Shown piece after piece: positions 3,976 to 61,469 of a DNA stretch of 64,000 bases. The first letter of the stretch is position 1. The number at the start of each line of letters is the position of its first letter. The stretch is from a candidate division WOR-3 bacterium. Lineage in GTDB: Bacteria; Hydrothermota; UBA3073. Position numbers and translations under genes: made by a program. The DNA is taken from NCBI GenBank assembly GCA_030606335.1, contig JAUWGP010000003.1, positions 26,065 to 90,064 on the forward strand. The letters run 5' to 3'. Below the pieces are notes generated by a model that worked only from the letters and a program-made list of their open reading frames with translations, ran no database searches and was not told where the DNA came from.

Positions 3976-4217
3976 AATGTGCCTGTCATTGCGAACGAAC
4001 GGTGTGCATGGCAATCTCATCCCTTGTTATCAATTATTTTTGGAGTGCATTACCTTGGTAATGCAATATGGTAATCCAATTTCTTTATCACTATTACATC
4101 TAAATGAGATTGCTTCACCCGTCAATTCGTCGTACTTCTTGACGGACGACGGGCTCGCAATGACAAAAGTGAATGCCTGTCGTTGCGAGTGAACTTAGTG
4201 AGTGCAGTAATCTCATA
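3976..4217. repeat. composite dispersed repeat, copy A ('tgtcattgcgag...ggcaatctcat' family)
   Basis: gtcattgcgaacgaac...ggcaatctcat at 3985-4020, gtgcattaccttggtaatgca at 4045, and gacggacgacgggctcgcaatgacaaaagtgaatgcctgtcgttgcgag...gtaatctcat at 4150-4217. The same modules recur at 20598, 27421-27660 and 57100-57440. Confidence 0.6.
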
Positions 4218-4995: not shown

Positions 4996-5021
4996 ACTCT
5001 CCCCTTGCCTTTTCCTTAATG

Positions 5022-5412
5022 CAAAACTTAACCACAGAGAACACAGAGAAATTAAATCAAAATTACTAATTAGCAATGTGTAATTATAAATTTGTGAAAA
5101 ATCCTTTTTAAACTGCTAACTTTATATTTTACATTGTTTCTTTGTCTCTGTGACCTCTTATCCATCTCAAGATCTGTTCCGTGGGATCCGTATGGAATGA
5201 ATAGGTATAAGGTCACCTTCCTAATTATCTTACCTGCTAGCTGGCAGGTGGTAGACAGACAATTCCTGTGAAATCATATCCGTTAGCTAATGAACATTAT
5301 CTGGATTCACTCTGTTAAATAGTTATAAAATTGAGTAAAAGAAATCACTCCTGGTACTTTATTTAACAGGAGAACCACGGAGAATTAATTTTTCTCTGTG
5401 CTCTCTGTGGTT
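5022..5412. repeat. MITE-like element with CCACAGAGAACACAGAGAA terminal inverted repeats, copy 1
   Basis: ccacagagaacacagagaa at 5022-5040 and its inverse ttctctgtgctctctgtggtt at 5392-5412. The interior shares ctgtgaaatcatatccgttagctaatgaacattatctgga with copy 2. Confidence 0.55.
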
Positions 5413-5425
5413 TATTTCATATTTT

Positions 5426-7405
5426 TTACAGTATCCTCTTTTTTACCATAGATTGTAATTTCCTTATTCTATCCCTTACTTTAATTGCCTCCTCAAAATT
5501 TTCCTCATCTGCAAGTTTCCCCATAATTTTTGTCAGTTTGCTTATCATCTCCATACCTTCTATGCCTTCTAAAATTTCATACACCTCTCCTTTTTCTTTT
5601 ATACGTGTATCTGCTATGGATGTGGAGCGGAGAATCTCCTCCTTAGTTTTATATATAGTCTCTGGAGTTATGTTATGTTTCCTGTTATATTCTAATTGTG
5701 CCCTACGTCTTCTCTCCGTCTCTTCTATAGTTTTCATCATAGAACCTGTGATGTTATCAGCATACATTATTACTTCTCCATTCACATTCCTTGCAGCTCT
5801 CCCTGCAGTCTGTATAAGGGATGTATATGAGCGTAAGAATCCTTCGTGATCTGCATCTAGAATAGCAACGAGAGATACCTCGGGTAGATCCAGTCCCTCC
5901 CTTAGTAGATTTATACCAACAAGGCAATCAAATTCTGAAAGCCTTAGATCCCTCAGGATGTCTACCCTCTCTATAGCATTTATCTCAGAGTGTATATACC
6001 TTACTTTTATATCTAATCTTGCAAGATAATCTGTTAATTCCTCTGCCATTCTTTTTGTCAGGGTTGTAACAAGAATCCTCTCCCCCCTTTCCACTCTCCT
6101 TTTTATCTCCTCTAAAAGATCATCTATCTCATTCTTTTTTGGTTTTACAGTAATCTTCGGGTCTTGAATACCTGTTGGTCTTATGATCTGCTCGACAATA
6201 TGGGATGAATTTCTAAATTCAAAATCACCAGGTGTTGCTGAGGTAAAGATTATCTGTGGAACTTTCTCTAAAAACTCATCAAATGTAAGGGGGCGGTTAT
6301 CGAGTGCAGAAGGTAGTCTGAATCCATATTCAACCAGTGTCTCTTTCCTCGAACGGTCACCAAGATACATGCCTATAATTTGAGGGATAGTAACATGAGA
6401 TTCATCAATTATACAGAGAAAGTCGTCAGGAAAGAAATCAAGCAGACAGAACGGTCTCGAGCCTGGCTTCCTTACTGAAAGATGACGCGAATAGTTTTCT
6501 ATACCTGTGCAGTATCCGACCTCTCTAAGTAGTTCTATATCATATTTCGTGCGTCCTTCAAGTCTCTGAGCCTCAAGTAGTTTTCCCTTATCTTTAAAAT
6601 ACTTCAACCTATCCTCCAGTTCCTGCTCTATGTCTTTTATTGCCCTTCCTAATCTCGTGTGGTCTGTAACAAAGTGTCTTGCGGGATAAATATGTACCCA
6701 TTCCCTTTCTTCAATCTTCTTGCCTGTAAGTGGATCAATCATAGATATCTTTTCTACAGTATCACCAAAAAAATCAATTCTAACACCACCCTCCTCATAT
6801 GCCGGACGAACCTCAACCACATCACCCTTTACCCTGAATGTTCCTCGGAGAAAATCAAGGTCATTTCTCGCATAATGGATGTCAACAAGCCCTTTTAACA
6901 GCTTCTTTCTCGAGATTAATTCGTTCTTTTTTACCCTTACCACATGTTTTTTATAATCCTCTGGGGAACCAAGTCCGTATATACAGGATACTGATGCAAC
7001 GATAACTACATCATTTCTCTCAATGAGTGCACTTGTAGCCCGTAGACGTAATTTATCTATTTCGTCGTTTATGGAGGCGTCCTTCTCTATATAGAGATCT
7101 GTTGCAGGTAAATACGCCTCAGGTTGATAATAGTCGTAATAAGAGATAAAATACTCAACCGAGCTGCCCGGGAAAAAACCCCTATATTCGCCGAATAACT
7201 GCGCAGCAAGAGTCTTATTATGAGAGATGACGATTGTGGGTTTATCCACTCTCGCTATAACATTACCCATTGTGAATGTCTTGCCAGAACCAGTTATGCC
7301 CAGAAGTGTCTGGAACTTATAACCCTTATTAATCCCCTCTACAAGCCTATCCACTGCCTGGGGTTGGTCACCAACAAGTGAGAATTTCGATGTTATATTA
7401 AACAT
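5426..7405 (-). CDS. uvrB: excinuclease ABC subunit B
   Basis: 659 aa. Walker A GITGSGKT, helicase motifs and a C-terminal UVR domain ([13 protein letters not shown]); the whole length follows the UvrB pattern. Confidence 0.95.
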
Positions 7406-7410
7406 ATCCT

Positions 7411-7560
7411 CTTCTCTCTTCCCCCTTCGCCTTATTTATCCCGTAGAATGCGTAGCTATTCTATCGGGACGCCCTACGCCCTATACTCCTCTCTTATCGC
7501 AACGAGGACGTTGCTCCTACCATAGATCGTCCGTCAAACGACGGACTCCTACTTTTAATT
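7411..7560. repeat. dispersed hairpin repeat ('cccgtagaatgcg...ctattctatcggg' module plus 'ctcctctcttatcg-hairpin-ctcctacc' module), copy 1
   Basis: About 75 nt are near-identical to 25140-25215, and 7478-7522 parallels 24999-25048 with a different but still self-complementary stem. Confidence 0.5.
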
Positions 7561-7599: not shown

Positions 7600-7990
7600 T
7601 GTTTTCCTCAATAGTCAGTTGTCATTAGTCATTCAATATCCCCAACATTAAACATTAAACATTTCACATACAACATGTATCATTTAACCAATTAACTTTT
7701 CAACTAATTAATTCGTGTGTTTATTGAGTTTATTGAGTTTGTTGTGTTCATTGAGTTTTTTTAGTTGATTTGGTTTATTTAGTTCGTTTAGTTGATTTAG
7801 TTGTTATATATAATAACCAATAACCATTAACTAATAACATTTAACATTAAACATTTAACATTTACTACTCCACTGATAACCGATAACCTAATTAACTAAT
7901 CAACCAATTAACCAATCAACTATTCCTTCTATCGCGACTGGGAAGTCGCTCCTACCTTATGCCATCTGATACATTTAACATTCAACATTT
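7600..7990. repeat. AT-rich low-complexity degenerate tandem repeats
   Basis: Runs of taaacatt/acatttaacatt, tattgagttt and ttagttgattt units. The ttgagtt motif recurs at 24700-24760. Confidence 0.5.
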
Positions 7991-10229: not shown

Positions 10230-10268
10230 ATACCCTCCTTTGTTTATATAGTATTGTTAAAAATCTCA

Positions 10269-10558
10269 CCACAGAGAACACAGAGAATGTTAAGTATTAA
10301 GGAATTATAAAAGATTCTTCTCCCTCCCCCCTGTGGCCTCTCTATATAACCAATCCTTTGACATTTATACATAGAAATTTATAAATTAAAACAGGGATTT
10401 AAAGAGATTGAAAGAAATTCATTTTTTTAAAAATAATACATTCTCTTAAGTTCTCTTTCCATCCCTGTAAAATCATATCTGTTAGTTAACGGACATTGTC
10501 TGGAGAGCACAGAGAATTAAATTTACTCTGTGATCCGTCTGAGACGGACTGTGGTTTC
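10269..10558. repeat. MITE-like element with CCACAGAGAACACAGAGAA terminal inverted repeats, copy 2
   Basis: ccacagagaacacagagaa at 10269-10287 and the inverted copy ctctgtgatccgtctgagacggactgtggtttc at 10526-10558. The interior is shared with copy 1. Confidence 0.55.
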
Positions 10559-10732
10559 ATATTCTATTTGACACTACCAATTGTTTATATAATAAAAATC
10601 CTAACTAACCCGTATTAATAAATACGAAATTTTTCATAAAAAGTTTCACACAATTATAACCTTAAATTTTTTAAAAGTCAAGAGAAAATGATGTCCGATA
10701 GTTTGTAATAAAGTTGTTTTATATAAAAAATC

Positions 10733-21903: not shown

Positions 21904-21973
21904 TTGAGGTCGGGAGACCTCTCCCACAAAGTTTGTATTGGGAGAAATGGGGGTCAGGCTAATGGAGAAATGG

Positions 21974-22142
21974 GGGTCAGGCTAAGAGATAAGAAATAGA
22001 AAATAATCTCACTACTTTGCCACGAAATATCAGATGATAAAAATCTCCTTCATATTCTATCCTCAGTTTCCTGGCATATTTTTATTTTACTATAACTTTC
22101 CCTCTATCTCAAGCAATTATCTCTTATCTTTTAGCCTGACCC
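21974..22142. repeat. about 170 bp MITE-like element, copy 1 (24-nt terminal inverted repeats gggtcaggctaagagataagaaat / atctcttatcttttagcctgaccc)
   Basis: The TIRs are perfect reverse complements over about 20 nt. The interior is near-identical to 24808-24978. A partial extra TIR copy sits at 21942-21964. Confidence 0.6.
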
Positions 22143-22161
22143 ACAATACCACTCTAAAATT

Positions 22162-24702
22162 ATGTTTAGATTATATAGACTAATCCTATTCACAGTCATC
22201 TCATCCTCCCTGTTTGGCAGGGCATTATCATTAGAAGAGGCAAAGGTATGCAACCCTGAGATTAAGAGGTTGATTGAATGTGCAAGTGGAGATGAAAAAG
22301 AGTGGGTGGATTTGCTTCTTCAATATATGCCAACCATTGACCTTGTAACCCTGAAAGCCGATTCTTTTCTTCTTGATTTTAAAGCCCTACAAATTAATCT
22401 TGATTCACTTCCCTGGGTAAAGGAAATACCTCAAGAATTTTTCGACCACTATGTTCTTCCATATCGGGTGTCACAAGAGCCATTGGAGTATTTTCGACTC
22501 CATTATGGAAGAGAGCTCTTCGAACGTGTTCGAGATTGTTCTGACTTAAAGAGTGCAGTACTTTCAGTAAATGAATGGGCTTATGAACAGATGAAATATG
22601 AACCAACATCCAGATGGGACCAATCTGCAGGTCAGACTATTAGACGAGGCATTGGGCGGTGTGAAGAAATGGCTATACTCTTTATTAAGGCATGCAGGTC
22701 AGTAGGTATTCCAACCAGAATGGTATCTTCACCCTGGTGGCCATTTACTAACTCGAATCATGCATGGGTTGAAGTCTGGACACAAGACGGATGGCATTAT
22801 CTTGGAGGTGCTGAGATGACTGCATTAGATAATACCTGGTTTAGAAAGGCAGTCAGAAGAACAGCAATCATAAAAGGTGTTACGTGGGGAGAATTTACTA
22901 AATCAAAAAAGATGGTATATTATAAAGGAGATGAATATACAGTTCTCAATCTAACATCTAACTATAGTGATACAACAGGTCTATCTATAACTGTAATGGA
23001 TACTGATGGAGCACCTGTAGAAAGTGCAGATGTCTGGATATCTGTCTTCAACTACTCATCTCTCCGTTCTGTTGCACATAAATATACCGACAAATCAGGA
23101 AAAACTCATCTGGTAGTTGGAAAGTGTGACCTATTTATTTCCTGTGGGAAGGACTCACTCTGGGATTATGATATACTGCGATTTTCAGAAGGTAATACAA
23201 CAAGCAATATCTCCCTCTTAATCGAGAAGATTTCGATACCAGATACATCCTTCTGGTTCAGGGTAAAGGATAAAGATGATGTTCCAGGAGATACGACCTA
23301 TAAGCCTCCAGAGCTATCCTATGTTCTTCATGACCTCCATCAGGAACAGGTAACCGCTGTAGACCCTGAGATTCTGAAAGAATTACCAGATACATCTTTA
23401 GAATATCGTCTTTTAAAAAACCTGAATCGCTCTCGTGGAAATCGAGAAACATTGATGAACTTCTGGAGAAAGTATGAGGAGGAACCTGAGCTTTTATTAT
23501 CCTTATGGGATGTTATGCACACAAAGGACCTCGTTGCGGTTGACAGCAGCACCATGCAGAAAATTATAGATTTGTCAAAGGATAGGCGAGAGTATTTTGA
23601 CAACTATGAGTACCCGGATTCACTATTCTTCAAATATGTTGCAAATCCAAGGATTCTATGGGAGGATTTTTATAAAGGTTCTGTATTGTTTAAGAATCCA
23701 TTCTTAGAACTCATAAGTAAAAAGCCAAATGAGATTGCAAATTATGTGGTGAGATATATCCAGAAAGAAATAGATACTCTAAGTGATAAGAACTATTTTG
23801 GTGGAAAGATGAATCCTTATCAAACACTTGCCGCAGAAACAGGCAGCTCAATTGAGAGACTGACCCTCTTTGTAGAAGCGATGAGGTCGGTTGGAATACC
23901 TGCACGCATATACTGGGATTATAAAAGTGCAGAATACTATGATGACAATTGGGTATCAGTTAAATTTGATACAACAGTAGAGATAGAAACCCAGGAGACA
24001 GTGATAGCTGCAAGATTCATACAAAATGGTGAAACACGAATAGATGTTAGATACTATTATGATTTTTCAATATGCCAGATTGAGGATGGAGTATTTAAAG
24101 ACATTACCCCCCCAATGGATACATCAATGGGTATTGTCTCCTTTACGGTTCCTACTGGAGAGTATTGCTTTATTACAGGTTTTCGTCAGGCAAAGGGAGA
24201 TGTCTTTGTCAGGGTTAATCCAGTTAAGACAGAGGAAGATACAGTGAAAATTACGGTAGAATTGGGGTTCCCGCCAATAAATGCAATCGGTTCATTTGAC
24301 TTACTCATAAGGGACTTCAAAGAACTTTCTGATATTTCTATTAGGGATACAGATGGTAATGTTCTCTCTCAGTCCGATTGGCAGAATGGTAATATTATTA
24401 TTGCTTTCCTTGACCCTGAGAAGGAAAGTTCAATATCAACTACCAAAAGACTTGCACTGATTAACGATATTCCTTTTTTGATTTTTATAAAGACTGATAA
24501 GAGGGATAACGCATTACATTTTTGTGTTGAAAATAAACTTGAGGGCAGGATCTTTTATGGTGACGAGGAAAAATTAAAAGAGATATTGAAATTCCATGAA
24601 CTCCCTTCAATTCTATTCCTACGGTATGGAAAGGCAATACTCTGGACAGAGGGTTTAAATCTTGAGATTGCAATTATGATAAGGCAAATAAAAGACAATT
24701 GA
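22162..24702 (+). CDS. secreted transglutaminase-like cysteine-protease-fold protein (two TGase-like cores, the second degenerate)
   Basis: Signal peptide. Core 1 has GRCEEMAILFIKACRSVGIPTRMV ... HAWVEVW ... DGWHYLGGAE (Cys-His-Asp). Core 2 has GSSIERLTLFVEAMRSVGIPARIYWDY (Cys replaced by Ser). Confidence 0.7.
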   Translation: MFRLYRLILFTVISSSLFGRALSLEEAKVCNPEIKRLIECASGDEKEWVDLLLQYMPTIDLVTLKADSFLLDFKALQINLDSLPWVKEIPQEFFDHYVLPYRVSQEPLEYFRLHYGRELFERVRDCSDLKSAVLSVNEWAYEQMKYEPTSRWDQSAGQTIRRGIGRCEEMAILFIKACRSVGIPTRMVSSPWWPFTNSNHAWVEVWTQDGWHYLGGAEMTALDNTWFRKAVRRTAIIKGVTWGEFTKSKKMVYYKGDEYTVLNLTSNYSDTTGLSITVMDTDGAPVESADVWISVFNYSSLRSVAHKYTDKSGKTHLVVGKCDLFISCGKDSLWDYDILRFSEGNTTSNISLLIEKISIPDTSFWFRVKDKDDVPGDTTYKPPELSYVLHDLHQEQVTAVDPEILKELPDTSLEYRLLKNLNRSRGNRETLMNFWRKYEEEPELLLSLWDVMHTKDLVAVDSSTMQKIIDLSKDRREYFDNYEYPDSLFFKYVANPRILWEDFYKGSVLFKNPFLELISKKPNEIANYVVRYIQKEIDTLSDKNYFGGKMNPYQTLAAETGSSIERLTLFVEAMRSVGIPARIYWDYKSAEYYDDNWVSVKFDTTVEIETQETVIAARFIQNGETRIDVRYYYDFSICQIEDGVFKDITPPMDTSMGIVSFTVPTGEYCFITGFRQAKGDVFVRVNPVKTEEDTVKITVELGFPPINAIGSFDLLIRDFKELSDISIRDTDGNVLSQSDWQNGNIIIAFLDPEKESSISTTKRLALINDIPFLIFIKTDKRDNALHFCVENKLEGRIFYGDEEKLKEILKFHELPSILFLRYGKAILWTEGLNLEIAIMIRQIKDN

Positions 24703-24807
24703 GTTTCTTGAGTTTTCACAGTTTATTGAGTTTCTTGAGTTATTGGGTTTGTTGGGTCTTAGGGTAGTACTTAAGGGGGTCAAGAAATGGGGGTCATCAA
24801 GAAATGG

Positions 24808-24978
24808 GGGTCAGGCTAAAAGATAAGAGATAGAATATAGTCTCACTCCTATTGCCACGAGATATCAAATGATAAAAATCTCCTTCATATTCTATCCTCA
24901 GTTTCCTGGGCATATTTTCGTTTTACTTTAACTTTCCCTCTGTCTCAAGCAATTATCTCTTATCTTTTAGCCTGACCC
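24808..24978. repeat. about 170 bp MITE-like element, copy 2 (same orientation as copy 1)
   Basis: gggtcaggctaaaagataagagat ... atctcttatcttttagcctgaccc, with an interior matching copy 1. Confidence 0.6.
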
Positions 24979-24998
24979 GCAATATTCCCGCAATATTA

Positions 24999-25262
24999 CG
25001 CCCTACGCTCCTCTCTTATCGCCCCGCCAAAGGCGGGGCTCCTACCTTTTTTCTTTTCTCCTAAGTTATTCTAAATTGCTAATTGCTAATTTTGCATTGA
25101 TAATTGACTTCACCTTCTCTATTCCCTCTTTCCTCATCTCTCTTCCCCCTTCGTTTTATTTATCCCGTAGAATGCGCAGCTATTCTATCGGGACGCTCTA
25201 CGCCCTTCGCCTTACGCTCTACGCCTTACGCCCTACGCCCTTCCCTCATCACTCTTCCGTCT
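24999..25262. repeat. dispersed hairpin repeat, copy 2, plus cttacgcc/ctacgcc microsatellite
   Basis: acgccctacgctcctctcttatcgCCCCGCCaaaGGCGGGGctcctacc, tctcttcccccttcgttttatttatcccgtagaatgcgcagctattctatcgggacgc, and (c)ttacgcc x6. Confidence 0.5.
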
Positions 25263-27420: not shown

Positions 27421-27660
27421 CTTGTCGTATATTCTCTCTATTGTAATGAGATTGCCACGCTCCTGTTAGTCGCTCGCAATGACAAATAAGTCATTAAATG
27501 GTAGGCGTAGACTTTATGCCTGCGAAGGAACGAATGAGATTGCTGCGCTCACTTCGTTCGCTCGCAATGACCGGGGTTGGTATCTGTCATTGCGAGGAGT
27601 CCGTCGTCCGTCAAGAAGTGCGACGGATTGACGGACAACGAAGCAATCTTATCACTTAGA
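27421..27660. repeat. composite dispersed repeat ('cattgcgag' family), copy C
   Basis: gagattgccacgc...gtcgctcgcaatgac, gaacgaatgagattgctgcgctcacttcgttcgctcgcaatgacc, gtcattgcgaggagtccgtcgtccgtcaagaagtgcgacggattgacggacaacgaagcaatc. Inverted relative to copy A. Confidence 0.6.
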
Positions 27661-32855: not shown

Positions 32856-32906
32856 GATACCCCCATAATAATATTAAATATCAAAAATCAAATTGCAAAA
32901 AATTAA

Positions 32907-33204
32907 CCACAGAGAGCACAGAGATTAAAGATTATTTTCTCTGTGTTCCCTAAAGCACTATGTTTTTCTAATTCATATAATAGAATAAAAGATAATAATT
33001 CCTTTAATCTAATAGTGTAGGTGCTTTTTAAAAGAAAAACAAGTTTATTCGAAGAATCCTCCTGAAAAGTTCTCAAATCTTTCACCCTCTTATTTTGAAA
33101 TAGGAGAGCACACAGAGGAACCAAAGAGTTCTTATTTCTTTTTCCCTGCTCGCTCTATGTCTCGCTAAGGCGGGACGACCTCTGTGGTTACACTTCTGTG
33201 GTTT
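32907..33204. repeat. MITE-like element with CCACAGAGAGCACAGAGA-type ends, copy 3
   Basis: ccacagagagcacagaga at 32907-32924, ggagagcacacagagg at 33103-33118, and inverted cctctgtggttacacttctgtggttt at 33179-33204. Confidence 0.5.
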
Positions 33205-33341
33205 ATTCATAAATTTAACATAACCATTAAGAATATCAAAGATAAATCCACAAAAATATTATAAACCAATTTTAATGTTTTGTCAAGGAAATTTTTAGAG
33301 AGCTCAAAGGTAGTTTTTTAGAAGCTCTCTAAAAAATTTAC

Positions 33342-45179: not shown

Positions 45180-46619
45180 TTATTTCATATAATCCTTTGT
45201 ATTTCTTAGTAGGAATATGGAGATGCCATTGCATTCCTTTATCTTTTCATAGCCCATTTCTCTTAATCTAAAAAACTCTAAGTCTTCATCATCAATTACA
45301 TCTACTATTAACCGGGGTTTATAACGTTGTAAAAGATTAGGGATATCTTCATAGGTAATAAGGTGATATCTCTCCCTTAATCTTGGAGCCACATTCTCAC
45401 TTACGTCATAGTTCGGTATCGCAAACTCAGGAACAGTTTCTCTGTCTGCCAGAAATCCAAAATAGAATCCAAAGGAAACTACCTTGTCATCCTTTTCTGT
45501 AACTGCTTCAATAGCCCTGGTTACATCTCTTATATTTGAAATTATATATTTCTTCTGCCATTCTCTTACATTAGAGAAATACATAAGAGAGCACGGAATG
45601 TAGGATGTTATGTATAAGATAAGAAGCCATTTGCTCCATGTTTTTCTTTTTAGATAACCAATATATGGTACAAGTAAGAATAAAAGAAATGGATAAATCT
45701 CTGTCATATAGCCGAAATGCGTAGGAGTAAGTATGAAATAGTATACTATAAAAAGAACTACAGCACAAATTAATGCCAACAATTCCTCTCTTCTCATTTT
45801 TCTCCACTTAATAGCTATTGCAAGTAGTATAAAAAGCACAATATTTGATGGAAAAAAGACAACCTTGGCAAGAATTAGGAATCTGTGGGTTATAAACCAA
45901 TAAAATGAAGGGGTAGTTCTGTTGAAATGATATAAAAAGTTACAGAAAAGAAAACAATCCGTATATTTAAAAAAATAATACAATGATGGAATAATACCAA
46001 GAACAAAACCAGCAACTGTATAAAGTATCATCTTCCACTCTCGCCTAAAGAGAAGAAGAATAATCGTAATAATAAGTAATACAATAAATATTGAGCGAAA
46101 ACTCACTGAAAGACCAATACAAATACCAGAAAGCAAAGAATATATACACCTTCTTCTCTTCAGGGAAAAGGAAAATAAAATAAGAAATAGAATATTTAAT
46201 AAATTCACCCAGGCTCTTTGTGTTGCCTGGATGGAGTTGTAGAAAAGCACTGCGTTACCTGTCCAGAGTATACCCATATAAACGGTCTCCTTCTTAGACT
46301 TATTAATATAAAATGTATATAGAAGGAGGATAACACCTGAGATAAGAGCAATAAGGGAAGATGATATTCTGGCGAGAAAGAAATTAGACCAACCACCACC
46401 AGAAAAAGGCAGAAAGACTAAAGCTGAGAGCGGCATCTGAGGGAAGAAAAAATCTTTATATAAGTGCATTCCTCTCGATATTAGTCTTGCTGCGGGAAAA
46501 TAATAGCTCAATTCATCTGTGAAAACATTTTGTATAAAGACAAGAGCAATAAGAATACTACCACTTATAATACAGTATAATATAATAAATTTGGATATGC
46601 TATTTCTACTTTGTTTCAT
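45180..46619 (-). CDS. GT-C-like polytopic membrane glycosyltransferase, paralogue 1
   Basis: 479 aa. TDELSYY acidic motif after TM1. About 85% identical to the 46901-48331 product. Confidence 0.5.
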   Translation of the reverse strand: MKQSRNSISKFIILYCIISGSILIALVFIQNVFTDELSYYFPAARLISRGMHLYKDFFFPQMPLSALVFLPFSGGGWSNFFLARISSSLIALISGVILLLYTFYINKSKKETVYMGILWTGNAVLFYNSIQATQRAWVNLLNILFLILFSFSLKRRRCIYSLLSGICIGLSVSFRSIFIVLLIITIILLLFRREWKMILYTVAGFVLGIIPSLYYFFKYTDCFLFCNFLYHFNRTTPSFYWFITHRFLILAKVVFFPSNIVLFILLAIAIKWRKMRREELLALICAVVLFIVYYFILTPTHFGYMTEIYPFLLFLLVPYIGYLKRKTWSKWLLILYITSYIPCSLMYFSNVREWQKKYIISNIRDVTRAIEAVTEKDDKVVSFGFYFGFLADRETVPEFAIPNYDVSENVAPRLRERYHLITYEDIPNLLQRYKPRLIVDVIDDEDLEFFRLREMGYEKIKECNGISIFLLRNTKDYMK

Positions 46620-46639
46620 TAAAATCCCTTAAGGATTTT

Positions 46640-46760
46640 CTAATTTATTTCTATGTGTTTTAAGAAGTTGGTGGTGGGTCTAAGCTGTTTTCATAGCAAT
46701 CCTGTCCCAAGAAAAATACTATTTGACAAACCCTTTATCACTACGAGATAGGGTTTCTTT
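46640..46760 (-). pseudogene. degraded 3' fragment of the GT4 glycosyltransferase gene (duplication scar)
   Basis: The reverse complement reads ETLSRSDKGFVK*YFSWDRIAMKTA*, against the intact C-terminus ETLSHKGKKLVKEYFSWDRIAVKTAETYQQL of the 48342-49526 gene. Confidence 0.5.
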
Positions 46761-46900
46761 TTTATTTTTACCCTTTAATAAATGTATAAGAAAGTCAGTT
46801 CTGCAGCATTTTATCACTGATTGTATTAAAAATTAATTTTATTTACCTTTCTGGGTTCCTATGGAAAGTAAGTAAAATTTACAAACTTATCTTTTATATC

Positions 46901-48331
46901 TCAATCACCAACTAATAAAAGCGATATACCCCTGTAATCTCCTATTTTCTTATAACCTAATTCCTTTAACTTAAAGTATTCTAATTCTGTCTTATCAATC
47001 ACATTTACTATTAGCCTGGGTCTATAGCGTTGTAAAAGCTGCGGGATGTCCTCATAAGTAGTAAGATGATACCTTTCCCTCTGTTTTGGACTTATATCCT
47101 CGCTTATGTCGTGAAGATAAAAAGCAAGTTCTGAAACAGTTTTTCTTTTCGCCAGAAATCCAAAATAGAATCCAAAGGAAACTACCTTATCATCCTTTTC
47201 TGTAACTGTTTCAATAGCCCTGGTTACATCTCTTATATTTGAAATTGAATGCCCCTTTTGCCAATCTCTGATGTTAAAGGAATACATTAAAGAGCACGGT
47301 ATATATGATGCAATATAGACAATTAGAAGCCATTTACTCCATGTTTTTCTTCTTAGATAACAGATATAGGGTACAAGTAAGAATAAAAGAAATGGGTAGA
47401 CCTCAGTCATATAACCGAAATGTGTAGGGGTAAGTAAGAAATAGTAAACTATAAAAAGGACTGCAGCACAAATTAATGCTAACAATTCCTCTCTTTTTAT
47501 TTTTCTCCACTTAACAGCTATTGAAAGTAATATAAAAAGCACAATATTTGATGGAAAAAAGATAACCTTGGAAAGAATTAGAAATCTGTGGGTTACAAAC
47601 CAATAAAATGAAGGGGTAGTCCTATTAAAATGATATAACAAATTACAGAAAATAAAATTATCCGGATATTTAAAAAAGTAATATAATGAAGGAATGACAC
47701 CAAGAACAAAACCAGCAACTGTATATAGTATCATTTTCCACTCTCGCTTAAAGAGAAGAAGAACAATCGCAATGATTAACAGTATTACAAATATTGAGCG
47801 AAAACTCACTGAAAGACCAATACAAACTCCAGAAAGTAAAGAATATATACATTTTCTTCTCTTTAAGGAAAGGGAAAATAAAATAAGAAACAGAATATTC
47901 AGTAAATTCACCCAGGCTCTTTGTGTTGCCTGGATGGAGTTGTAGAAAAGCACTGCGTTACCACTCCACAGGACACCAATATAAATAGTATCTCTCTTAG
48001 ATTTATTAATATGAAAGGTATATAGAAGAAGGATAACACCTGATATAAGTGTAAGTATGGAAGAAGATACTCTGGCGAGAAAGAAATTTGTCCATCCACC
48101 ATTTGAAAAAGGCAGAAAGACTAAAGCTGAGAGTGGCATTTGATTAAAGAAAAAATCTTTATATAATTTCTTTCCTATTGCTATTAAAGATGCTGCAGGA
48201 ATATAAGTACTTAATTCATCCGTATAAACATTTTGAGTAAAGATAAGAGCGACAAGAATACCTCCACTTATGATGCAGAATAATATGATAATTTTAAATA
48301 TGCTATCCTGACTTCGCCTCATGAAAACCAT
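46901..48331 (-). CDS. GT-C-like polytopic membrane glycosyltransferase, paralogue 2
   Basis: 476 aa, collinear with paralogue 1; even the antisense ORF shadows match (46205-46399 and 47908-48102). Confidence 0.5.
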   Translation of the reverse strand: MVFMRRSQDSIFKIIILFCIISGGILVALIFTQNVYTDELSTYIPAASLIAIGKKLYKDFFFNQMPLSALVFLPFSNGGWTNFFLARVSSSILTLISGVILLLYTFHINKSKRDTIYIGVLWSGNAVLFYNSIQATQRAWVNLLNILFLILFSLSLKRRKCIYSLLSGVCIGLSVSFRSIFVILLIIAIVLLLFKREWKMILYTVAGFVLGVIPSLYYFFKYPDNFIFCNLLYHFNRTTPSFYWFVTHRFLILSKVIFFPSNIVLFILLSIAVKWRKIKREELLALICAAVLFIVYYFLLTPTHFGYMTEVYPFLLFLLVPYICYLRRKTWSKWLLIVYIASYIPCSLMYSFNIRDWQKGHSISNIRDVTRAIETVTEKDDKVVSFGFYFGFLAKRKTVSELAFYLHDISEDISPKQRERYHLTTYEDIPQLLQRYRPRLIVNVIDKTELEYFKLKELGYKKIGDYRGISLLLVGD

Positions 48332-48341
48332 TTAAAGATTT

Positions 48342-49526
48342 TCAACTAACTACTGTGTGTTTTTTAACAAGTTGTTGGTAGGTTTCGGCTGTTTTTACAG
48401 CAATCCTGTCCCAGGAAAAATACTCTTTGACGAGCTTTTTACCCTTATGAGATAAAGTTTCTCTTAATTTCATGTCCTTCAACACATGTATAATCTTTTG
48501 TGCAATTTGCTCCTGATTTTGAGGGTCAATGAGCACTGCACTTCCTTCAATCAATCCAACGACATCCCTTACTGGACCAATATCTGATGCGATAACAGGA
48601 ACTCCAAATGCCATAGCTTCAATTAGCACTATCCCTTGAGTTTCGTAAAGTGTTGGGAAAACAAAAATACTCGCCTTTTTATATAACTCGTATATTTTCT
48701 GTCTTGGTAGGGGTCCAGTAAACTCTATATTTGAGGTTAGGTTGTTTTCCTTTATAAATTTCTGCAGTGAGTTAAAATAACCTTTTTCATCTACAGGTCC
48801 AGCGAAGATAAACATCGTATCAGGAACTTCTTTTAAAACACCTATAGATGCCCTTACTAAAGCTAACTGATTTTTTCTCCTGCAAATTCTTGCAGGGTAC
48901 ATCACAATATGTCTTTTTTCCCTGTTAGATTTATTATAATTAATATATTCCTTTATTTTTTCTACCTCTAATCCATAGTGTATCGAAGTAATTTTCAAAG
49001 AATTTAATCCAAAATGAGACACAAGTGTGTTCTTTACGCTTATAGTGGGGGTAAATATGTGGTCAATCCTCTTAAGTAGTATAGACTCTGCTATGTGCTT
49101 TATCCTGTTTAAAAGTGAGGGGTTGAGTATAAACTTAGTGTTATGAGTGGTATATAATATAACTATATGCCATTTGAAAATACTCTTTGCAATCAGTACA
49201 AACAAACCTGCAAATTGTGAGTGACTATGAATTATATCTACAGGCTTCTCTTTTAATAAGTAGTATAATTTAGGTATTGTACTATAGGCAAATGAGAGAA
49301 CCTGTAATAATGGGTGAACATCACATAGGGAGGGTATCTTTACCTCACAGAAAACAATTCCTGTTTTTCCTCTATCTATATTCGATTTTATATCGATTAT
49401 ATCAACACTATTTCCATATTTAACTAGCTTCTTAGAAAGTTCATATATTGCATTCTCTACGGCACCGACACCAATAGGTGGGATAGACATAATACCCGTA
49501 CCAATATGGACAATATTCATTCCCAT
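48342..49526 (-). CDS. GT4-family (group 1) glycosyltransferase
   Basis: GT-B C-terminal motif E...GIVLIEAMAFGVPVIASDIGPVRDVV; 394 aa. Confidence 0.8.
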   Translation of the reverse strand: MGMNIVHIGTGIMSIPPIGVGAVENAIYELSKKLVKYGNSVDIIDIKSNIDRGKTGIVFCEVKIPSLCDVHPLLQVLSFAYSTIPKLYYLLKEKPVDIIHSHSQFAGLFVLIAKSIFKWHIVILYTTHNTKFILNPSLLNRIKHIAESILLKRIDHIFTPTISVKNTLVSHFGLNSLKITSIHYGLEVEKIKEYINYNKSNREKRHIVMYPARICRRKNQLALVRASIGVLKEVPDTMFIFAGPVDEKGYFNSLQKFIKENNLTSNIEFTGPLPRQKIYELYKKASIFVFPTLYETQGIVLIEAMAFGVPVIASDIGPVRDVVGLIEGSAVLIDPQNQEQIAQKIIHVLKDMKLRETLSHKGKKLVKEYFSWDRIAVKTAETYQQLVKKHTVVS

Positions 49527-56312: not shown

Positions 56313-56975
56313 TTAAGTTCTTCGGTGAGCCTTCAGGAATATATGCACCCCGAATCGACCACTTTTTATATTGAAGTATAAACTCTCATTTATATGTCTT
56401 ATGAATGGTATCCCAAGCGGTTTTGTATAAACTTTATCAACATTAAATCCAGCTTTTAAAAAGAGCGATAAAAGGCTTTTATGGTTGAACAACTGGATAT
56501 GAAGAGGGTCATATAGATAGTCATAGCCAGTAATAGCAGACTTAATTTTATGCAGAAATGCCCATCTATTGGGTGTAGAGACAACAATCCTCCCCTCCTT
56601 CTTGAGTAATCTCTTTATGCTGCGTAGTGTATTGAGAGGCTTGGGTAGATGTTCAACAACCTCTATCATTGTTACTGCATCATAGATATCCTTATCCATA
56701 TCTTTCAGCTTTATATTTTTAAATGATATGTCTGGATAGTTTGAAGATGCTATTTTAAGTGCCTTTTCATTTATATCTATCCCCTCTGGGACCGCTTCAT
56801 ATTTCTTTTCCAGGAGATAACAGAATTCCCCTGTTCCACATCCTACATCAAGTATCCTCTCCCCCTTCTTTGGCGAAAGGATTGTAATAATCTCCCTAAA
56901 CTCCCAATTATCGTAATCCTTAAGATGGAGTATGGCGTATCTATAGTCGTATTCCATAGTAAAATCAAAAATCAA
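56313..56975 (-). CDS. class I SAM-dependent methyltransferase
   Basis: Motif I ILDVGCGTGEF; motif post-I/II (GIDINEKALKIA; AVTMIEVVEHL). Confidence 0.75.
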   Translation of the reverse strand: MIFDFTMEYDYRYAILHLKDYDNWEFREIITILSPKKGERILDVGCGTGEFCYLLEKKYEAVPEGIDINEKALKIASSNYPDISFKNIKLKDMDKDIYDAVTMIEVVEHLPKPLNTLRSIKRLLKKEGRIVVSTPNRWAFLHKIKSAITGYDYLYDPLHIQLFNHKSLLSLFLKAGFNVDKVYTKPLGIPFIRHINESLYFNIKSGRFGVHIFLKAHRRT

Positions 56976-57099
56976 ATATTAAATATCAAAATTTTTAGCC
57001 ACAGATTACACAGATTCTCGATCTCACCTCTTTTTAAACAGGGACTTGAACGAGACATAAACGAGATTTTATCTAAAGAATAACGTGCAAGAGAGCCTA

Positions 57100-57440
57100 T
57101 GTTATTGCGAGTTAATTCCATCCTGGCTGGTGTCTTGTTAACTAACTTAGTTCACCTTTTTTCTTTGTCAAGATGCTATGGTAGTATCAGGTTCCTACCT
57201 ACGATTATGAGTCACAACGAGCCTGTCTACCGTCAGGTAGATAGGTTGCTCCAACCTCCAAAGGATACATTATTTTATAGAACACTAACTGTCATTGCGA
57301 GACTGAACGAAGTGAAGTCGTGGCAATCTCATCCTTTACTTCTAATATCTAAATGCGATTGCTTCACCTATGGTTCGCAATGACAAAAGTGAATGCCTGT
57401 CATTGCGAGCGAACAAAGTGAGCGTGGCAATCTCATTCTT
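57100..57440. repeat. composite dispersed repeat ('cattgcgag' family), copy D
   Basis: gttattgcgag..., tgtcattgcgagactgaacgaagtgaagtcgtggcaatctcat, gattgcttcacc...ttcgcaatgacaaaagtgaatgcctgtcattgcgagcgaacaaagtgagcgtggcaatctcat. The 94-aa ORF here is repeat-derived. Confidence 0.6.
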
Positions 57441-58839
57441 TATTACCTAAAACAACCCTTATATCCTCTTTTGTTATCCCCTTCATAATATAGAGTAAAA
57501 ATGTATATATAACTGCACCAATAAACACAAGCAGAATAACATTTAACGACCTCAAGAAGTAAAGAATGGCACACATTATTGCTGAAGCAAAAATCGGCTT
57601 TCCAAAAAATGTAAACAACCTAAACTTCACTACTCTATGAAAAACACGATACATAAGGTAGAACATAATTAACTCAGCACATATAGTTGCTAAAGCCGCT
57701 CCTATTATACCAAGTCTTGGTATCATAATCACATTCAGAATTATATTCGACACAGTGCCTGTCACCATTGCTACTGCATATCTCTTCTCCTGTCCTGTGC
57801 CAATTAACCCCTGTGTGTATATACTTCCTATCGTAGTAATTGCCAGGGTCCATATAAGTATCTGGAGGACTGGAGTTGAGGATGTGTAACCTTGTCCAAA
57901 TATAAACCTTATGATGGGCATTGCAAGCAAGGTCCCTCCGGCACATATTGGAATAACTACAGTTATAACTGCCCTGGCAGCCATAGAGAGTATCTCCTCA
58001 AGTTTCTTAATCGATTCCTTATAATATCTCGAAATAAGGGGAAGTATAACCATTGAAAAAACCCTATCCACAAGTAGAAGAAACATTAGAAGTTTATAGG
58101 CAACAGTATAAAGACCAACATCCGTTGTGCCTCTTATAAATCCAAGCATAGTAATATCGAAGTTAAAATATATCTGAGTCATCACAGTTCCTATTCCTAT
58201 AGGTAGGGCATGTTTCAATATTTCCCAGGTTCTGATTTCCAATCTCGGACCAACGACCTTCAGCTCACTTCTTCTTCGCACCATTAAACCGAGATATAGA
58301 GCCGCCACTGCACTTCCAGTAAACCAGAGAATCGGTACAAGATATATATTACCCGTACTTCTGACAAATAAAAGCACCAGAAATAGATACGAACCATATG
58401 ACATTATCATTGATGTACCTATGTTTCTCATCTCCTCGATTCCTCGGAAAAACCACTCAAGGGATAATGCGTATGGAAAGACAGAAAGGCAATAGAGGAT
58501 TATAAGCAGCCTCATATCCATCATGCCTTTGATAAGGAAGGTTAATATTGTAATAATTGTAAAGGCGGTTGCTGCAAGTAAAAATTTTAAGGGAATTATT
58601 TTAGTTATGTAGTCTTTTGAAAGGAGGGGTGCCTTTGCAATCTCTCTTGTGCCAATAGTTGATAAACCGAGGTCAGTAAAAATGAGTGCATAACCGAGGA
58701 ATGTGAAGGCAAAACTTAATGCGCCAAATCCTGCGACTCCCAGCACTCTCGCAAGCCAGATTGTAGCAAAAAAACCCAGGAGACGAGATAAAACATCTCC
58801 AGAGAATACAAATAGAATGTTCTTTGCAATTCTTCTCAC
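57433..58839 (-). CDS. MOP-superfamily polysaccharide/oligosaccharide flippase (Wzx-like)
   Basis: About 12-14 TM helices; N-terminus KNILFVFSGDVLSRLLGFFATIWLARVLGVAGFGALSFAF is the Polysacc_synt pattern. Confidence 0.75.
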   Translation of the reverse strand: MRRIAKNILFVFSGDVLSRLLGFFATIWLARVLGVAGFGALSFAFTFLGYALIFTDLGLSTIGTREIAKAPLLSKDYITKIIPLKFLLAATAFTIITILTFLIKGMMDMRLLIILYCLSVFPYALSLEWFFRGIEEMRNIGTSMIMSYGSYLFLVLLFVRSTGNIYLVPILWFTGSAVAALYLGLMVRRRSELKVVGPRLEIRTWEILKHALPIGIGTVMTQIYFNFDITMLGFIRGTTDVGLYTVAYKLLMFLLLVDRVFSMVILPLISRYYKESIKKLEEILSMAARAVITVVIPICAGGTLLAMPIIRFIFGQGYTSSTPVLQILIWTLAITTIGSIYTQGLIGTGQEKRYAVAMVTGTVSNIILNVIMIPRLGIIGAALATICAELIMFYLMYRVFHRVVKFRLFTFFGKPIFASAIMCAILYFLRSLNVILLVFIGAVIYTFLLYIMKGITKEDIRVVLGNKE

Positions 58840-58843
58840 AGTT

Positions 58844-59740
58844 TTAATCTATATCCTCAAGCTTCTCAACATTCGTTATCTCTACATCTGGTAGGGTTCT
58901 TTTTATCAATCCTTTCAATACCTTGCCAGGACCCACCTCTACAAACCGACTCACACCGTATTCTTTCATCGCCGTAACACATTCTACCCATCTCACAGGT
59001 GAGACTATCTGTTTCTTGAGTGCATCTTCTATCTGATTTACATCTCTGGTTAATGCTCCGGTCACGTTCAAGGCAACAGGAATATTGGGTGTGTTAAATT
59101 TGAATTTGGTCAAAACCTTACCGAATTTTTCAAAGGCAGACTGCATAAGAGGAGAATGAAATGCACCTGAAACCTGCAGCTTGATAACTCTTTTTGCACC
59201 TGCCTTCAAAGCCCTGGCAGAAGCAATCTCAACTGCCTTCTCATTTCCCGATATCACAGTTTGTGCAGGTGAATTGTAATTCGCAATAATAACATTATCG
59301 ATCTCATCTATTATTTCCTTTACCGCAGTCGTATTAAGTCCAATAATTGCACACATAGCACCAGGACTCTTCTTTCCAGCCTCTGACATAAGTTCTCCCC
59401 TGAATCTAACAATATGTAGTACATCATCAAATGAGAATACACCAGCAGCATAAAGCGCAGAATATTCTCCAAGTGAGTGTCCAGCAAAACAGTCCGGATT
59501 TAAACCCTTTTCTTTGAGTAACTCAAAACATATAATGGAATTCATAAGTATGGCAACCTGGGCATTTTTGGATTCTTTTAGAATATCTTCAGGTCCACTA
59601 AAAAGTATGTCTTTTATGTCAAAACCGAGAACCTTCTTAGAACTCTCAAAGAAATATTTTGCCTTTTCACTACCATCGTACAGGTCTTTTGCCATACCAA
59701 CATACTGTGAACCCTGTCCCGGAAAGACAAATCCAATCAT
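58844..59740 (-). CDS. fabD: malonyl-CoA:ACP transacylase
   Basis: FPGQGSQYVGM, GHSLGEYSALYAAG active-site motif. Confidence 0.9.
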   Translation of the reverse strand: MIGFVFPGQGSQYVGMAKDLYDGSEKAKYFFESSKKVLGFDIKDILFSGPEDILKESKNAQVAILMNSIICFELLKEKGLNPDCFAGHSLGEYSALYAAGVFSFDDVLHIVRFRGELMSEAGKKSPGAMCAIIGLNTTAVKEIIDEIDNVIIANYNSPAQTVISGNEKAVEIASARALKAGAKRVIKLQVSGAFHSPLMQSAFEKFGKVLTKFKFNTPNIPVALNVTGALTRDVNQIEDALKKQIVSPVRWVECVTAMKEYGVSRFVEVGPGKVLKGLIKRTLPDVEITNVEKLEDID

Positions 59741-59754
59741 AAATCCTCCTTAAC

Positions 59755-60010
59755 TCTTAAACGCAGATTACGCAGATATTTACTCTTAAACGCAGATTGC
59801 ACGGATTACACAGATTTCCACAGACTAAAATAATCTCAAATTATGTGTTAAGAAACCATTCACCCCGTGAAATAATTTATTTCACAGGGCAGGGATTATC
59901 ACAAGATACAAATCATTAAGTTATTTCCAAGCTTGTTCTTTAATTACTTAATTACCCAATAACCCAATTACCTTTTTTGATATAATCAGTAAAATCCGTG
60001 AAATCTGTGG
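59755..60010. repeat. CGCAGATT/CACAGATT-type repeat block with inverted ends (MITE-like)
   Basis: ctcttaaacgcagattacgcagat / ctcttaaacgcagattgcacggattacacagatttccacag at the left end; inverted aatccgtgaaatctgtggc at 59990-60010. A related tagccacagattacacagatt sits at 56990. Confidence 0.45.
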
Positions 60011-60030
60011 CTTAAGCTAATCCGTGGTCC

Positions 60031-61246: not shown

Positions 61247-61310
61247 GTTGAATAAATGTAATCTGCTCAATCCGTTGAATCCGTTGAATAAATATAATCT
61301 GCTCAATCCC
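61247..61310. repeat. 2.x tandem copies of a 30-nt unit (aatccgttgaataaatRtaatctgctcaatcc)
   Basis: Direct visual repeat in the 1.29-kb non-coding gap. Confidence 0.5.
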
Positions 61311-61469
61311 TGCCTACCGGCAGGCAGGCGTTGACCTGATTTTTTATAATTTTGTGAACGTATAAGCTACATTCACAGATAGAAACCTGGAAACCTTTTC
61401 CCACAATCATTCAATATTTGCTATTCACTATTTACTACTAAATATTTACTATTTAATATCATTTTTTCC

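Follow-up and report, generated by a model that had tools for sequence, protein, structure and literature searches.

Intergenic hairpin repeats in a candidate division WOR-3 genome as probable remnants of a small GxxExxY transposon-like element

What kind of element left three related palindromic repeats between the genes of a candidate division WOR-3 bacterium, and does a longer, mobile parent of these repeats exist? The repeats lie in a 64,000-nucleotide stretch of contig JAUWGP010000003.1 (GenBank assembly GCA_030606335.1, positions 26,065 to 90,064), which we call the window and whose own numbering is used throughout; a sequence-only reading had described them as a family resembling miniature inverted-repeat transposable elements (MITEs). 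We conclude, with a probability of roughly 0.8, that all three repeats are old and non-autonomous relics, MITE-like in form, of a small transposon-like element that carries a single gene of the GxxExxY (PDDEXK_3) family. The main interest lies in this parent, apparently undescribed, which would be a mini-transposon of many phyla with one nuclease-fold gene and a preference for targets adjacent to Shine-Dalgarno (SD) sequences. Literature searches by sequence strings, family names or keywords found no description of the element.

The intact relatives of the window copies are mobile, moving as a block with an 8-bp target-site duplication (TSD) into SD-proximal positions in which they are co-oriented with the host gene. 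One such unit encodes protein P0233 (138 amino acids), present in identical sequence on at least 24 contigs, and another encodes P0239, present on 16. The P0233 unit is 546 nt long, runs from GGTAATGTCAAAAG.. to ..TTTGACAATAC and is at least 99% identical over eight aligned contexts, and the DNA on either side is unrelated from site to site (an ABC transporter operon, adh_short, TctC, a dehydrogenase, NicX and succinyl-CoA ligase); the P0239 unit measures 545 nt and ends in GGTACTGTCAAAAG.. and ..TTTGACAATAC. Perfect 8-bp direct repeats stand at a fixed offset at five sites or more, including AAATACAA in two of the loci we fetched (L291 and L293; fetched loci are numbered with an L), CATGCAGG in L298 and AGCATTTC in L305, and the flanks of L309 match at 7 of 8 positions. 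Elsewhere the partner of a TSD is found at the same offset on another contig (the left flank of L303 and L306 with the right flank of L308, AAAATTTA; the left flank of L310 with the right flank of L302, GATAATTT), and those contigs are thus assembly chimeras across the repeat. An SD-like motif follows ..TTTGACAATA by 13-15 nt in 14 of 14 distinct right flanks, with a co-oriented start codon at 25-29 nt. Clean TSDs emerged only when recent, identical copies were compared.

From these units, the intact element would be about 546 bp long with a 13-nt terminal inverted repeat (TIR; RGTAWTGTCAAAA) at each end, and would read, 5' to 3', TIR, its own SD and ATG, a 5' hairpin of CACAGAGNN nonamers, the gene, a 3' nonamer hairpin and the second TIR. 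The open reading frame (ORF) passes through the 5' hairpin, giving a single gene of about 120-155 codons with a predicted GxxExxY / PDDEXK_3 nuclease fold. Insertion would duplicate 8 bp of target about 13 nt 5' of the SD of a host gene, in the same orientation, and such a position implies transcription from the host promoter as part of a leader or operon. The element would probably rely on that promoter; the intact units carry an SD and ATG of their own, but no own promoter was identified in them. The window copies would have lost the gene by deletion and gained other small hairpin repeats, keeping the hairpin modules and the ends.

The gene and the inverted repeat are associated across the protein family. 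Among 80 metagenome loci chosen by GxxExxY protein similarity alone, 73 had enough flanking sequence to be scored, and an inverted repeat brackets the gene in 58 of these (79%; above the 99th percentile of shuffles), compared with 1 of 35 similarly sized control ORFs on those contigs. Of the 58 bracketed loci, 46 contain two or more CNCNNAK cores spaced 8-10 nt apart, the commonest cores being CACAGAG (54), CACGGAG (32) and CGCAGAG (13). By a rough measure, a co-oriented ORF starts within 45 nt of the right arm in 36 of the 58 bracketed cassettes; co-orientation of GxxExxY genes with their neighbours (72-77%) is by our judgement about the general bacterial background and uninformative alone.

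The family is large, with more than 7,000 90%-identity clusters at E <= 1e-20 among the 8,000 candidates examined, and its annotated proteins are typically 128-156 amino acids long, a length that reflects the inclusion of the 5' hairpin in many called ORFs. An alignment of four sequences shows the D..ExK positions to be invariant, and the second D, the E and the K are so in one of 32 sequences as well. In two independent GxxExxY genes (L128:1600-1615 and L130:1385-1392) an in-frame stop falls at nearly the same codon (..HEFK* and ..YEF*) of an otherwise well-conserved ORF; these stops could reflect coincident decay or be programmed. No solved structural homologue was found by sequence. The function of GxxExxY proteins was listed as unknown in 2012, with a remark on 'multiple transfers' (PMC3424549), and our literature search, which covered journals other than subscription ones, found no link of PDDEXK_3, PF13366, TIGR04256 or GxxExxY to repeats or mobility.

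In the window, the motif on which the sequence-only reading had built its family is real, and its place in the element is different from the one proposed. With up to three mismatches allowed, the 19-mer CCACAGAGAACACAGAGAA is found at four sites, 5032(+), 5392(-), 10269(+) and 32907(+), where shuffles of the window (GC about 37%) predict 0.02, and a window scan for two or more CNCNNAK cores spaced 8-10 nt finds eight arrays, every one of them intergenic, against 0.4 in shuffles. A repeat search returned a left-end family of 27 nt with three members, and the one clean inverted pair, that of copy 1, is also 27 nt long (5025-5051 / 5391-5417, 89% identity). The right arm of copy 2 is degenerate and interrupted by a 15-nt GC hairpin, and that of copy 3 is degenerate as well, reading CCACAGAAG..CCACAGAGG on the minus strand. 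Each copy end is a hairpin unit CCACAGAGAG-CACAGAGAA-loop-TTCTCTGTG. The 19-mers, reported as terminal inverted repeats of all three copies, are arms of two internal hairpins of tandem CACAGAGNN nonamers, and the true ends are about 18 nt outside them, at the RGTAWTGTCAAAA inverted repeat, of which copy 2 gives an example (10250-10263, AGTATTGTTAAAAA / 10567-10578, TTTGACACTACC).

The outer arms pair when the copies are folded (z = -5.1, -3.6 and -3.6 for copies 1, 2 and 3), and no known RNA family accounts for them: Rfam 15 gives no match at gathering score in the whole window, and copies 1 and 2 give chance-level matches only at E up to 10. Alignment of the interiors with MAFFT and BLAST leaves one similarity, a 41-nt block at 5265-5305 and 10464-10504 that is 85% identical between copies 1 and 2; it was not found in copy 3, and the remaining interiors of the three copies are unalignable by these methods. 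The conserved interior block claimed for the whole family is thus a feature of two copies, and probably one of decayed coding sequence.

A DNA profile built from six intact or nearly intact elements connects the copies to the GxxExxY units, most fully so for copy 2 (10250..10578, minus strand), an internally deleted, pseudogenised element of 329 nt compared with 545-546 nt in intact ones. Copy 2 has all element parts in order, with the gene cut down to N- and C-terminal remnants, and has ends, hairpin modules and coding remnants in common with the P0233 and P0239 units. One profile match (10383-10260, minus strand, E = 1.5e-10) extends from the last codons across a 13-nt deletion and the stop region to the 3' hairpin and its arm, and another (10565-10476, minus strand, E = 0.01) covers the 5' module and the putative N-terminal remnant. 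The 5' end GGTAGTGTCAAA..ATGAAACCACAG corresponds to the left TIR and then the start codon of the gene, and the 5' hairpin with its start-codon remnant ATGAAACCACAG.. (10508..10560, minus strand) is split by the inserted 15-nt mini-hairpin TCCGTCTGAGACGGA at 10534-10548. The 41-nt block (10464..10504, minus strand) is assigned by the profile alignment to N-terminal coding sequence, its first half aligning to the E-F-P-L-K codons at profile positions 57-81 (AATGTCCGTTAA versus AATTTCCGTTAA). A C-terminal codon remnant (..LINFNVERLKDG..; 10349..10383, minus strand) matches the intact consensus at about 25 of 35 nt in nhmmer; the 13-nt deletion comes next, and after it the stop region with the 3' hairpin. 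The 3' end AGTATTGTTAAAAATCTCACCACAGAGAACACAGAGAA agrees with the reverse complement of the P0233 right end at about 33 of 37 positions by eye, and the start ATGAAACCACAGAG recurs in L128, L129 and the P0239 element. Copy 2 is flanked by the direct repeat TTGTTTATATA (10240..10250, partner 10581-10591; 11/11, empirical p about 0.006).

Copies 1 and 3 preserve both hairpin modules and an ATG remnant with degenerate ends, and in all three copies an ATGAA(A/T).. remnant lies directly outside the 5' hairpin. Copy 1 (5015..5437, minus strand, outer limits approximate) is a whole decayed element that fills the spacer between the uvrB stop codon (5426-5428) and the NIF3 start (5001). Along the minus strand it consists of a 5' end, the start-codon remnant ATGAAATAA (5412-5420), the 5' hairpin CCACAGAGAG-CACAGAGAA-aaattaa-TTCTCCGTG (5376..5410; profile positions 13-57, E = 0.0027), the block (5265..5305), filler, the 3' arm and a 3' end. 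The arm of the 3' module (5032..5050, plus strand) comprises two CACAGAGAA nonamers with 0 mismatches, reads TTCTCTGTGTTCTCTGTGG on the minus strand and matches profile positions 479-509 of intact elements, so that both hairpin modules match the profile. The ends, CTTAATGCAAAACTTAA and AGGATACTGTAAAAAATATGAAATAAA, each running into CCACAG, resemble RGTAWTGTCAAAA ends in degenerate form. Given the position and orientation that it has in common with its counterpart in copy 2, the block of copy 1 is probably a decayed N-terminal GxxExxY coding segment (..EFPLKEIT..). The scan for flanking direct repeats that was applied to copies 2 and 3 found none at copy 1.

Copy 3 (32889..33231, minus strand, limits approximate) matches the profile at 32959-32898(-) with E = 9e-5, across the stop codon and stop region, the 3' hairpin and the arm of intact elements. 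Its 3' hairpin (32907..32945, minus strand) reads CACAGAGA-loop-TCTCTGTG plus an outer nonamer, and its degenerate 5' hairpin (33104..33201, minus strand) reads CCACAGAAG..CCACAGAGG, then 70 nt with a GC mini-hairpin, then CCTCTGTGTGCTCTCC. The direct repeat AATATCAAAAAT at 32877..32888, with partner AATATCAAAGAT at 33232-33243 (11/12, p about 0.015), is weakly TSD-like and offset. A fourth element (59750..60030, minus strand), with CGCAGAT/CACGGAT/CACAGAT nonamer arms, is of the same kind but from a sister subfamily, and its 3' arm ends 9 nt 5' of the SD of the minus-strand gene 58844-59740. Additionally, a solo arm CCACAGATTACACAGAT (56988..57016, plus strand) stands about 25 nt 5' of the start of the minus-strand ORF 56313-56975, and the 64 kb thus hold three copies of 329 to about 420 nt, one sister element and one solo arm.

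Read together, the sequences suggest that the window copies, which lack the gene and carry internal deletions, are related to a mobile element with TIRs and TSDs. They have what defines a MITE, namely small size, several copies, a longer parent, no mobility gene and, in copy 2, terminal inverted repeats, and in this respect the sequence-only reading was broadly right. The window holds no intact PF13366 / TIGR04256 ORF, and the copies are thus derivatives rather than full members; a tblastn search of the window with an intact GxxExxY protein gave no significant match, jackhmmer and phmmer found no GxxExxY or Y1 ORF, and the gene remnants are detectable by DNA-profile searches only.

Several observations weigh against this reading. 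The assignment of the N-terminal remnant is borderline at E = 0.01, and copies 1 and 3, which retain hairpin modules and degenerate ends only, are placed in the family by arms, order and orientation. The direct repeats in the window are 10-12 nt long and displaced from the junction (by 2-4 nt from that predicted by intact relatives in copy 2) and are not clean 8-bp TSDs, and in copy 3 the 3' end and the SD are 24 nt apart instead of about 13. The 64-kb window contains no intact GxxExxY gene or transposase and so gives no sign of current activity in this genome. Among 71 hairpin elements from many phyla, flanking repeats of at least 8 nt are weakly enriched, at 11% versus 3%. For the protein, the AlphaFold model is weak (predicted local distance difference test score, pLDDT, 61.5) and yields no significant Foldseek match, the best matches of the model against the PDB, each with E >= 0.06, being to restriction endonucleases and to lambda exonuclease.

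Relative to host genes, the copies agree with the intact elements in orientation. As had been noted before, all three copies are intergenic, and two lie between divergently transcribed genes: copy 2 between SppA(-) and hsdR(+), and copy 3 between a hypothetical gene(-), with a GTG start at 32855, and a gene(+) for a protein with a type IX secretion system (T9SS) tail. What was called the left end is 31-52 nt 5' of the start codon of a minus-strand gene in each case, and each copy has the orientation of the host gene downstream of it. Between the 3' end and the host SD lie about 9 nt at NIF3 (copy 1), 10 nt at SppA (copy 2) and about 24 nt in copy 3, versus 12-14 nt in intact elements, and the distance in relatives of the window genome is 12-13 nt at NIF3 (L123) and 12 nt at hicB (L210).

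Copies 2 and 3 lie in the 5' leader, with the best promoter candidate on one side and the start codon on the other. For SppA the candidate is TTGACT-17-TATAAT (10653..10681, minus strand), host context 5' of copy 2 and outside the element, which is conserved in the window genome and two other species, L210 and L211; for the gene at copy 3 it is a 12/12 match (33258-33286, minus strand) beyond the far end of the element. Transcription must thus read through both copies to reach the host genes. The SppA leader of L210 is 150 nt long and has no arms, and that of L211 carries a different arm-bounded insert. A consensus scan predicts no canonical terminator at the arms, its only matches being the inserted mini-hairpin at 10534-10548, and the earlier proposal that the copies donate promoters or terminators is therefore not borne out. 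At present the copies are most likely without a role, as inert transcribed passengers in the leaders of NIF3, SppA and the hypothetical gene, and their stems could affect the processing of these leaders or the translation of the three genes.

UvrB and SppA homologues set the window genome close to candidate division WOR-3, and comparison with relatives suggests how the copies turn over. In L123, whose UvrB is 81% identical, the uvrB-NIF3 spacer has arms at both of the corresponding positions around a different interior, and in L125 (79% identical) the examined locus has no arms and a different gene order. Four-fold degenerate sites are saturated between the window genome and L123 (38-52% identical). 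Copy 2 nonetheless shares 89% identity over 108 nt with the element that L123 has 5' of NIF3, a non-orthologous site, which implies spread after species divergence or strong constraint on the element; to a pseudogene copy in Stahlbacteria (L071) copy 2 is 76% identical over 176 nt. A look for presence or absence of the copies among strains of the source population turned up only short Logan contigs, and those from the same strain, assembled from short reads, break off within copies 2 and 3.

The nonamer motif extends far beyond this lineage. The exact 18-mer CCACAGAGARCACAGAGA occurs in at least 120 stretches of species-representative genomes from most bacterial phyla, with Acidobacteria, Nitrospirae, Planctomycetes, Chlamydiae, Proteobacteria, cyanobacterial isolates, Cloacimonadota, Stahlbacteria and Omnitrophota among the hosts; about 35 random 18-mer matches are calculated for the 596 Gb, and some single matches may be chance. 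Most of the matches listed are runs of 2-6 nonamers followed by an inverse run, and among the matches listed a strict inverse partner lies within 1.5 kb in 68 of 133, with a loop shorter than 100 nt in 48 cases and of 250-700 nt in about 10. Long loops contain PF13366 / TIGR04256 GxxExxY genes in at least five cases (L114, L049 twice, L021 and L106), GxxExxY fragments adjoin arms in L061, L077 and L095, and one long loop holds an unknown 89-amino-acid ORF. Across loci of 37-70% GC the arms are flanked by A-rich sequence 5' and T-rich sequence 3'. In viral contigs (IMG/VR, L212-L290) the 18-mer is present in 79 stretches with an inverse partner for just 19 of 86 matches, no GxxExxY ORF was found near it, and no clear phage vector emerged.

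Some of these loci show further features of the hairpins. An Abditibacterium metagenome-assembled genome (MAG; L084:581-1333) carries an IS200/IS605 transposase gene, with its own inner hairpins, between four to five CACAGAG nonamers per side, and nonamer hairpins thus seem to be landing sites for other insertion sequences (ISs). In the Omnitrophota MAG JAGYOO010000120 (L049:2330-2420) a nonamer-type hairpin GACAGAGGTCCGAGGACAGAGG...CGGACTTCCGACTTCCGACTTC lies apparently in frame within hisF, at a variable loop of the encoded protein, and hisF is itself flanked by two GxxExxY cassettes. An outer end GTATTGTCAAAA(G/C) stands beside CCACAGAG arms at L129:548-560 and in the left flanks of L038, L046 and L094, both in WOR-3 relatives and in MAGs that carry the labels Nitrospirota, Thermodesulfovibrionales and Proteobacteria, which implies that this subfamily crossed phylum boundaries with its ends intact.

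Explanations that leave out a mobile GxxExxY element fare poorly against this evidence. The arms might be operators, mRNA stabilisers or bidirectional terminators that serve the host and are not mobile DNA, and their long stems (fold z -3.6 to -5.1), their A-rich 5' and T-rich 3' flanks and their retention at the same site in the window and L123 despite saturated neutral sites would fit such a role. However, the scan places no canonical terminator at the arms, and copies 2 and 3 stand between the promoter and the start codon of the gene that they would serve, where a terminator would be harmful; the biased flanks are explained by the conserved outer repeat ..TGTCAAAA.., one relative (L210) has an SppA leader that lacks the element, and identical TSD-flanked units in many contexts demonstrate mobility, all of which makes a host function very improbable. 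Still a little less probable are REPIN-like doublets of repetitive extragenic palindromes (REPs) spread by a REP-associated tyrosine transposase (RAYT) of the Y1 type. The hairpin architecture, the inverted doublets, the intergenic positions and the Y1_Tnp gene between nonamer arms in L084 recall such a system, but the L084 protein is an IS200/IS605 transposase (NF033573, 131 bits) that reaches 21.8 bits with the RAYT model NF047646, whose cut-off is 80, and its gene brings inner hairpins of its own, which marks it as an IS that landed in a hairpin loop. No Y1 protein is encoded in the window, and intact relatives have TIRs and 8-bp TSDs, which are absent from REP/RAYT and IS200/IS605 elements; an IS200/IS605-derived palindrome-associated transposable element (PATE) is excluded by the same TIRs and TSDs. 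That the sites are chance occurrences of the low-complexity motif CACAGAGA has next to no probability: the motif is a tandem repeat, and random 18-mer matches are to be expected in 596 Gb, but the excess in the window over shuffles is large, the arms come in inverted pairs, homology extends beyond the motif, and the arms are tied specifically to one gene family. The sites are thus not the chance, low-complexity matches lacking a conserved interior that the sequence-only reading had named as the alternative to its own view.

The harder choice concerns what moves the parent. The two nonamer hairpins may fold in the transcript or in single-stranded DNA, and the PD-(D/E)XK-fold protein would provide the cleavage for mobility. 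That the element's own GxxExxY protein supplies the mobilising nuclease is a proposition to which we give slightly less than even odds, and the broader proposal, in which GxxExxY is the mobility enzyme of an unrecognised minimal-IS class of many phyla and the nonamer hairpins are its MITE-like debris, we put forward tentatively, at odds somewhat short of even. The presence of a TSD speaks against homing by double-strand-break repair alone and in favour of a staggered cut in the target. Alternatively, the units could be MITEs in which GxxExxY is a passenger, for example in addiction or defence, with an unlinked DDE transposase, possibly an IS6-family one, recognising the 13-nt ends and moving the unit in trans. 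The element end GGTACTGTCAAAAG resembles the IS26 end GGCACTGTTGCAAA at 11 of 12 aligned bases with a 2-nt gap, a further point against our reading although a likeness over 14 nt may be chance; the IS26 end sequence itself was matched at 100% next to annotated IS26 transposase genes. IS26 and the IS6 family make TSDs of 8 bp, the size seen here, and we know of no strand-transfer activity in a PD-(D/E)XK-fold protein of about 130 amino acids. On the other side, no DDE transposase with such ends was noticed in the roughly 300 fetched loci, and a gene with invariant D..ExK that is kept across phyla and bracketed in 79% of loci shows the pattern of an element's own mobility gene. Additionally, copy-in transposition of the IS6 type leads to cointegrates rather than simple insertions, and strict SD-proximal targeting is not an IS6 trait. 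We regard mobilisation in trans as unlikely, if far from negligible. IS66 was considered as mobiliser and rejected, as an IS66 fragment in L295 has unrelated ends.

These data tie a family of more than 7,000 clusters to a mobile unit with defined ends, a target duplication and a target preference, and offer a concrete, testable function for it. The element also explains the CACAGAG-type palindromes that break short-read assemblies, as well as the spurious N-terminal extensions ('HREHRE', 'PQRAQ') in annotated proteins. By settling between a promoter and the start codon, it is able to alter how housekeeping genes are expressed. Should the nuclease prove to be the transposase, the element would constitute a new mechanistic class of IS, among the smallest.

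The window carries other repeats beside the GxxExxY remnants. A GC-rich mini-hairpin CCCTGCCTACCGGCAGGCAGG and its variants (CCGTCTGAGACGG at 10535-10547) are inserted in arms or loops of larger elements in several WOR-3-group genomes (window 61309-61331; L210:3100-3121; L062:1617-1640; L123:8215-8235), and this hairpin behaves like a second, far smaller mobile repeat. A different dispersed family, at 3993-4216, 27445-27634 and 57290-57441, consists of GCTCGCAATGAC..GTCATTGCGAG hairpins followed by ..CGTGGCAATCTCAT; its members share 63-67 nt at 78-88% identity in both orientations, and L125 has similar CTCGCAATGAC runs. An 846-amino-acid ORF (22162-24702) lies between direct repeats of about 190 nt (21943-22148 / 24791-24988, 85-97% identical), each with an internal inverted repeat TGGGGGTCAGGCTAA..TTAGCCTGACCC. 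A 76-nt repeat (7407-7482 and 25131-25206, 93% identical) is accompanied by arrays of GTTTATTGA-type nonamers (7712-7793 and 24696-24750) in two long intergenic regions, and intergenic DNA here is unusually long (400-1300 nt) and dense in short tandem and hairpin repeats. The region 45180-48500 holds a tandem duplication (period 1703 nt, 71-85% identity) that takes in the paralogous ORFs 45180-46619 and 46901-48331.

Rickettsia palindromic elements and the intervening sequences of 23S rRNA that hold a small ORF are palindromic selfish DNA tolerated in transcribed regions, and the in-frame nonamer hairpin inside hisF (L049) is like the former, and an ORF enclosed by a long stem like the latter; the sequence families are different, and we know of no TIR/TSD transposon structure described for either. 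REP/REPIN systems with RAYT share extragenic palindromes, often in inverted doublets and sometimes flanking a small mobility gene, as well as hairpin loops that serve as IS landing sites (L084 here). REPs are lineage-specific, whereas the repeat unit here is conserved across phyla, has TIRs and 8-bp TSDs and comes with no RAYT. Elements of the IS200/IS605 type and PATEs are also very small, with hairpins at their ends and non-autonomous, hairpin-only derivatives, but they use a Y1 HUH transposase and have neither TIR nor TSD, in contrast to the TIRs, TSDs and PD-(D/E)XK-fold protein of the present element. The likeness to IS6 (IS26) lies in the terminal sequence (GGCACTGTTGCAAA versus GGTACTGTCAAAAG); the element described here has no DDE gene, measures 546 bp rather than 820 bp, targets SD-proximal sites and contains nonamer hairpins. 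The parent matches no IS family that we can recall. The window copies come closest to bacterial MITEs (Delihas 2011, PMC3184786; MITEAba12, PMC6382973), with which they and their relatives share short non-coding units, terminal inverted repeats, intergenic dispersal, TSDs at fresh copies and derivation from a longer element with the same ends. Whereas the usual parents of MITEs encode a DDE, HUH or serine transposase, the parent here encodes none of these and is no recognised IS, but a unit of about 546 bp with one protein of about 130 amino acids and a predicted PD-(D/E)XK fold, and it is further set apart from MITEs by its two nonamer hairpins, its fixed distance 5' of the SD and its co-orientation with the host gene.

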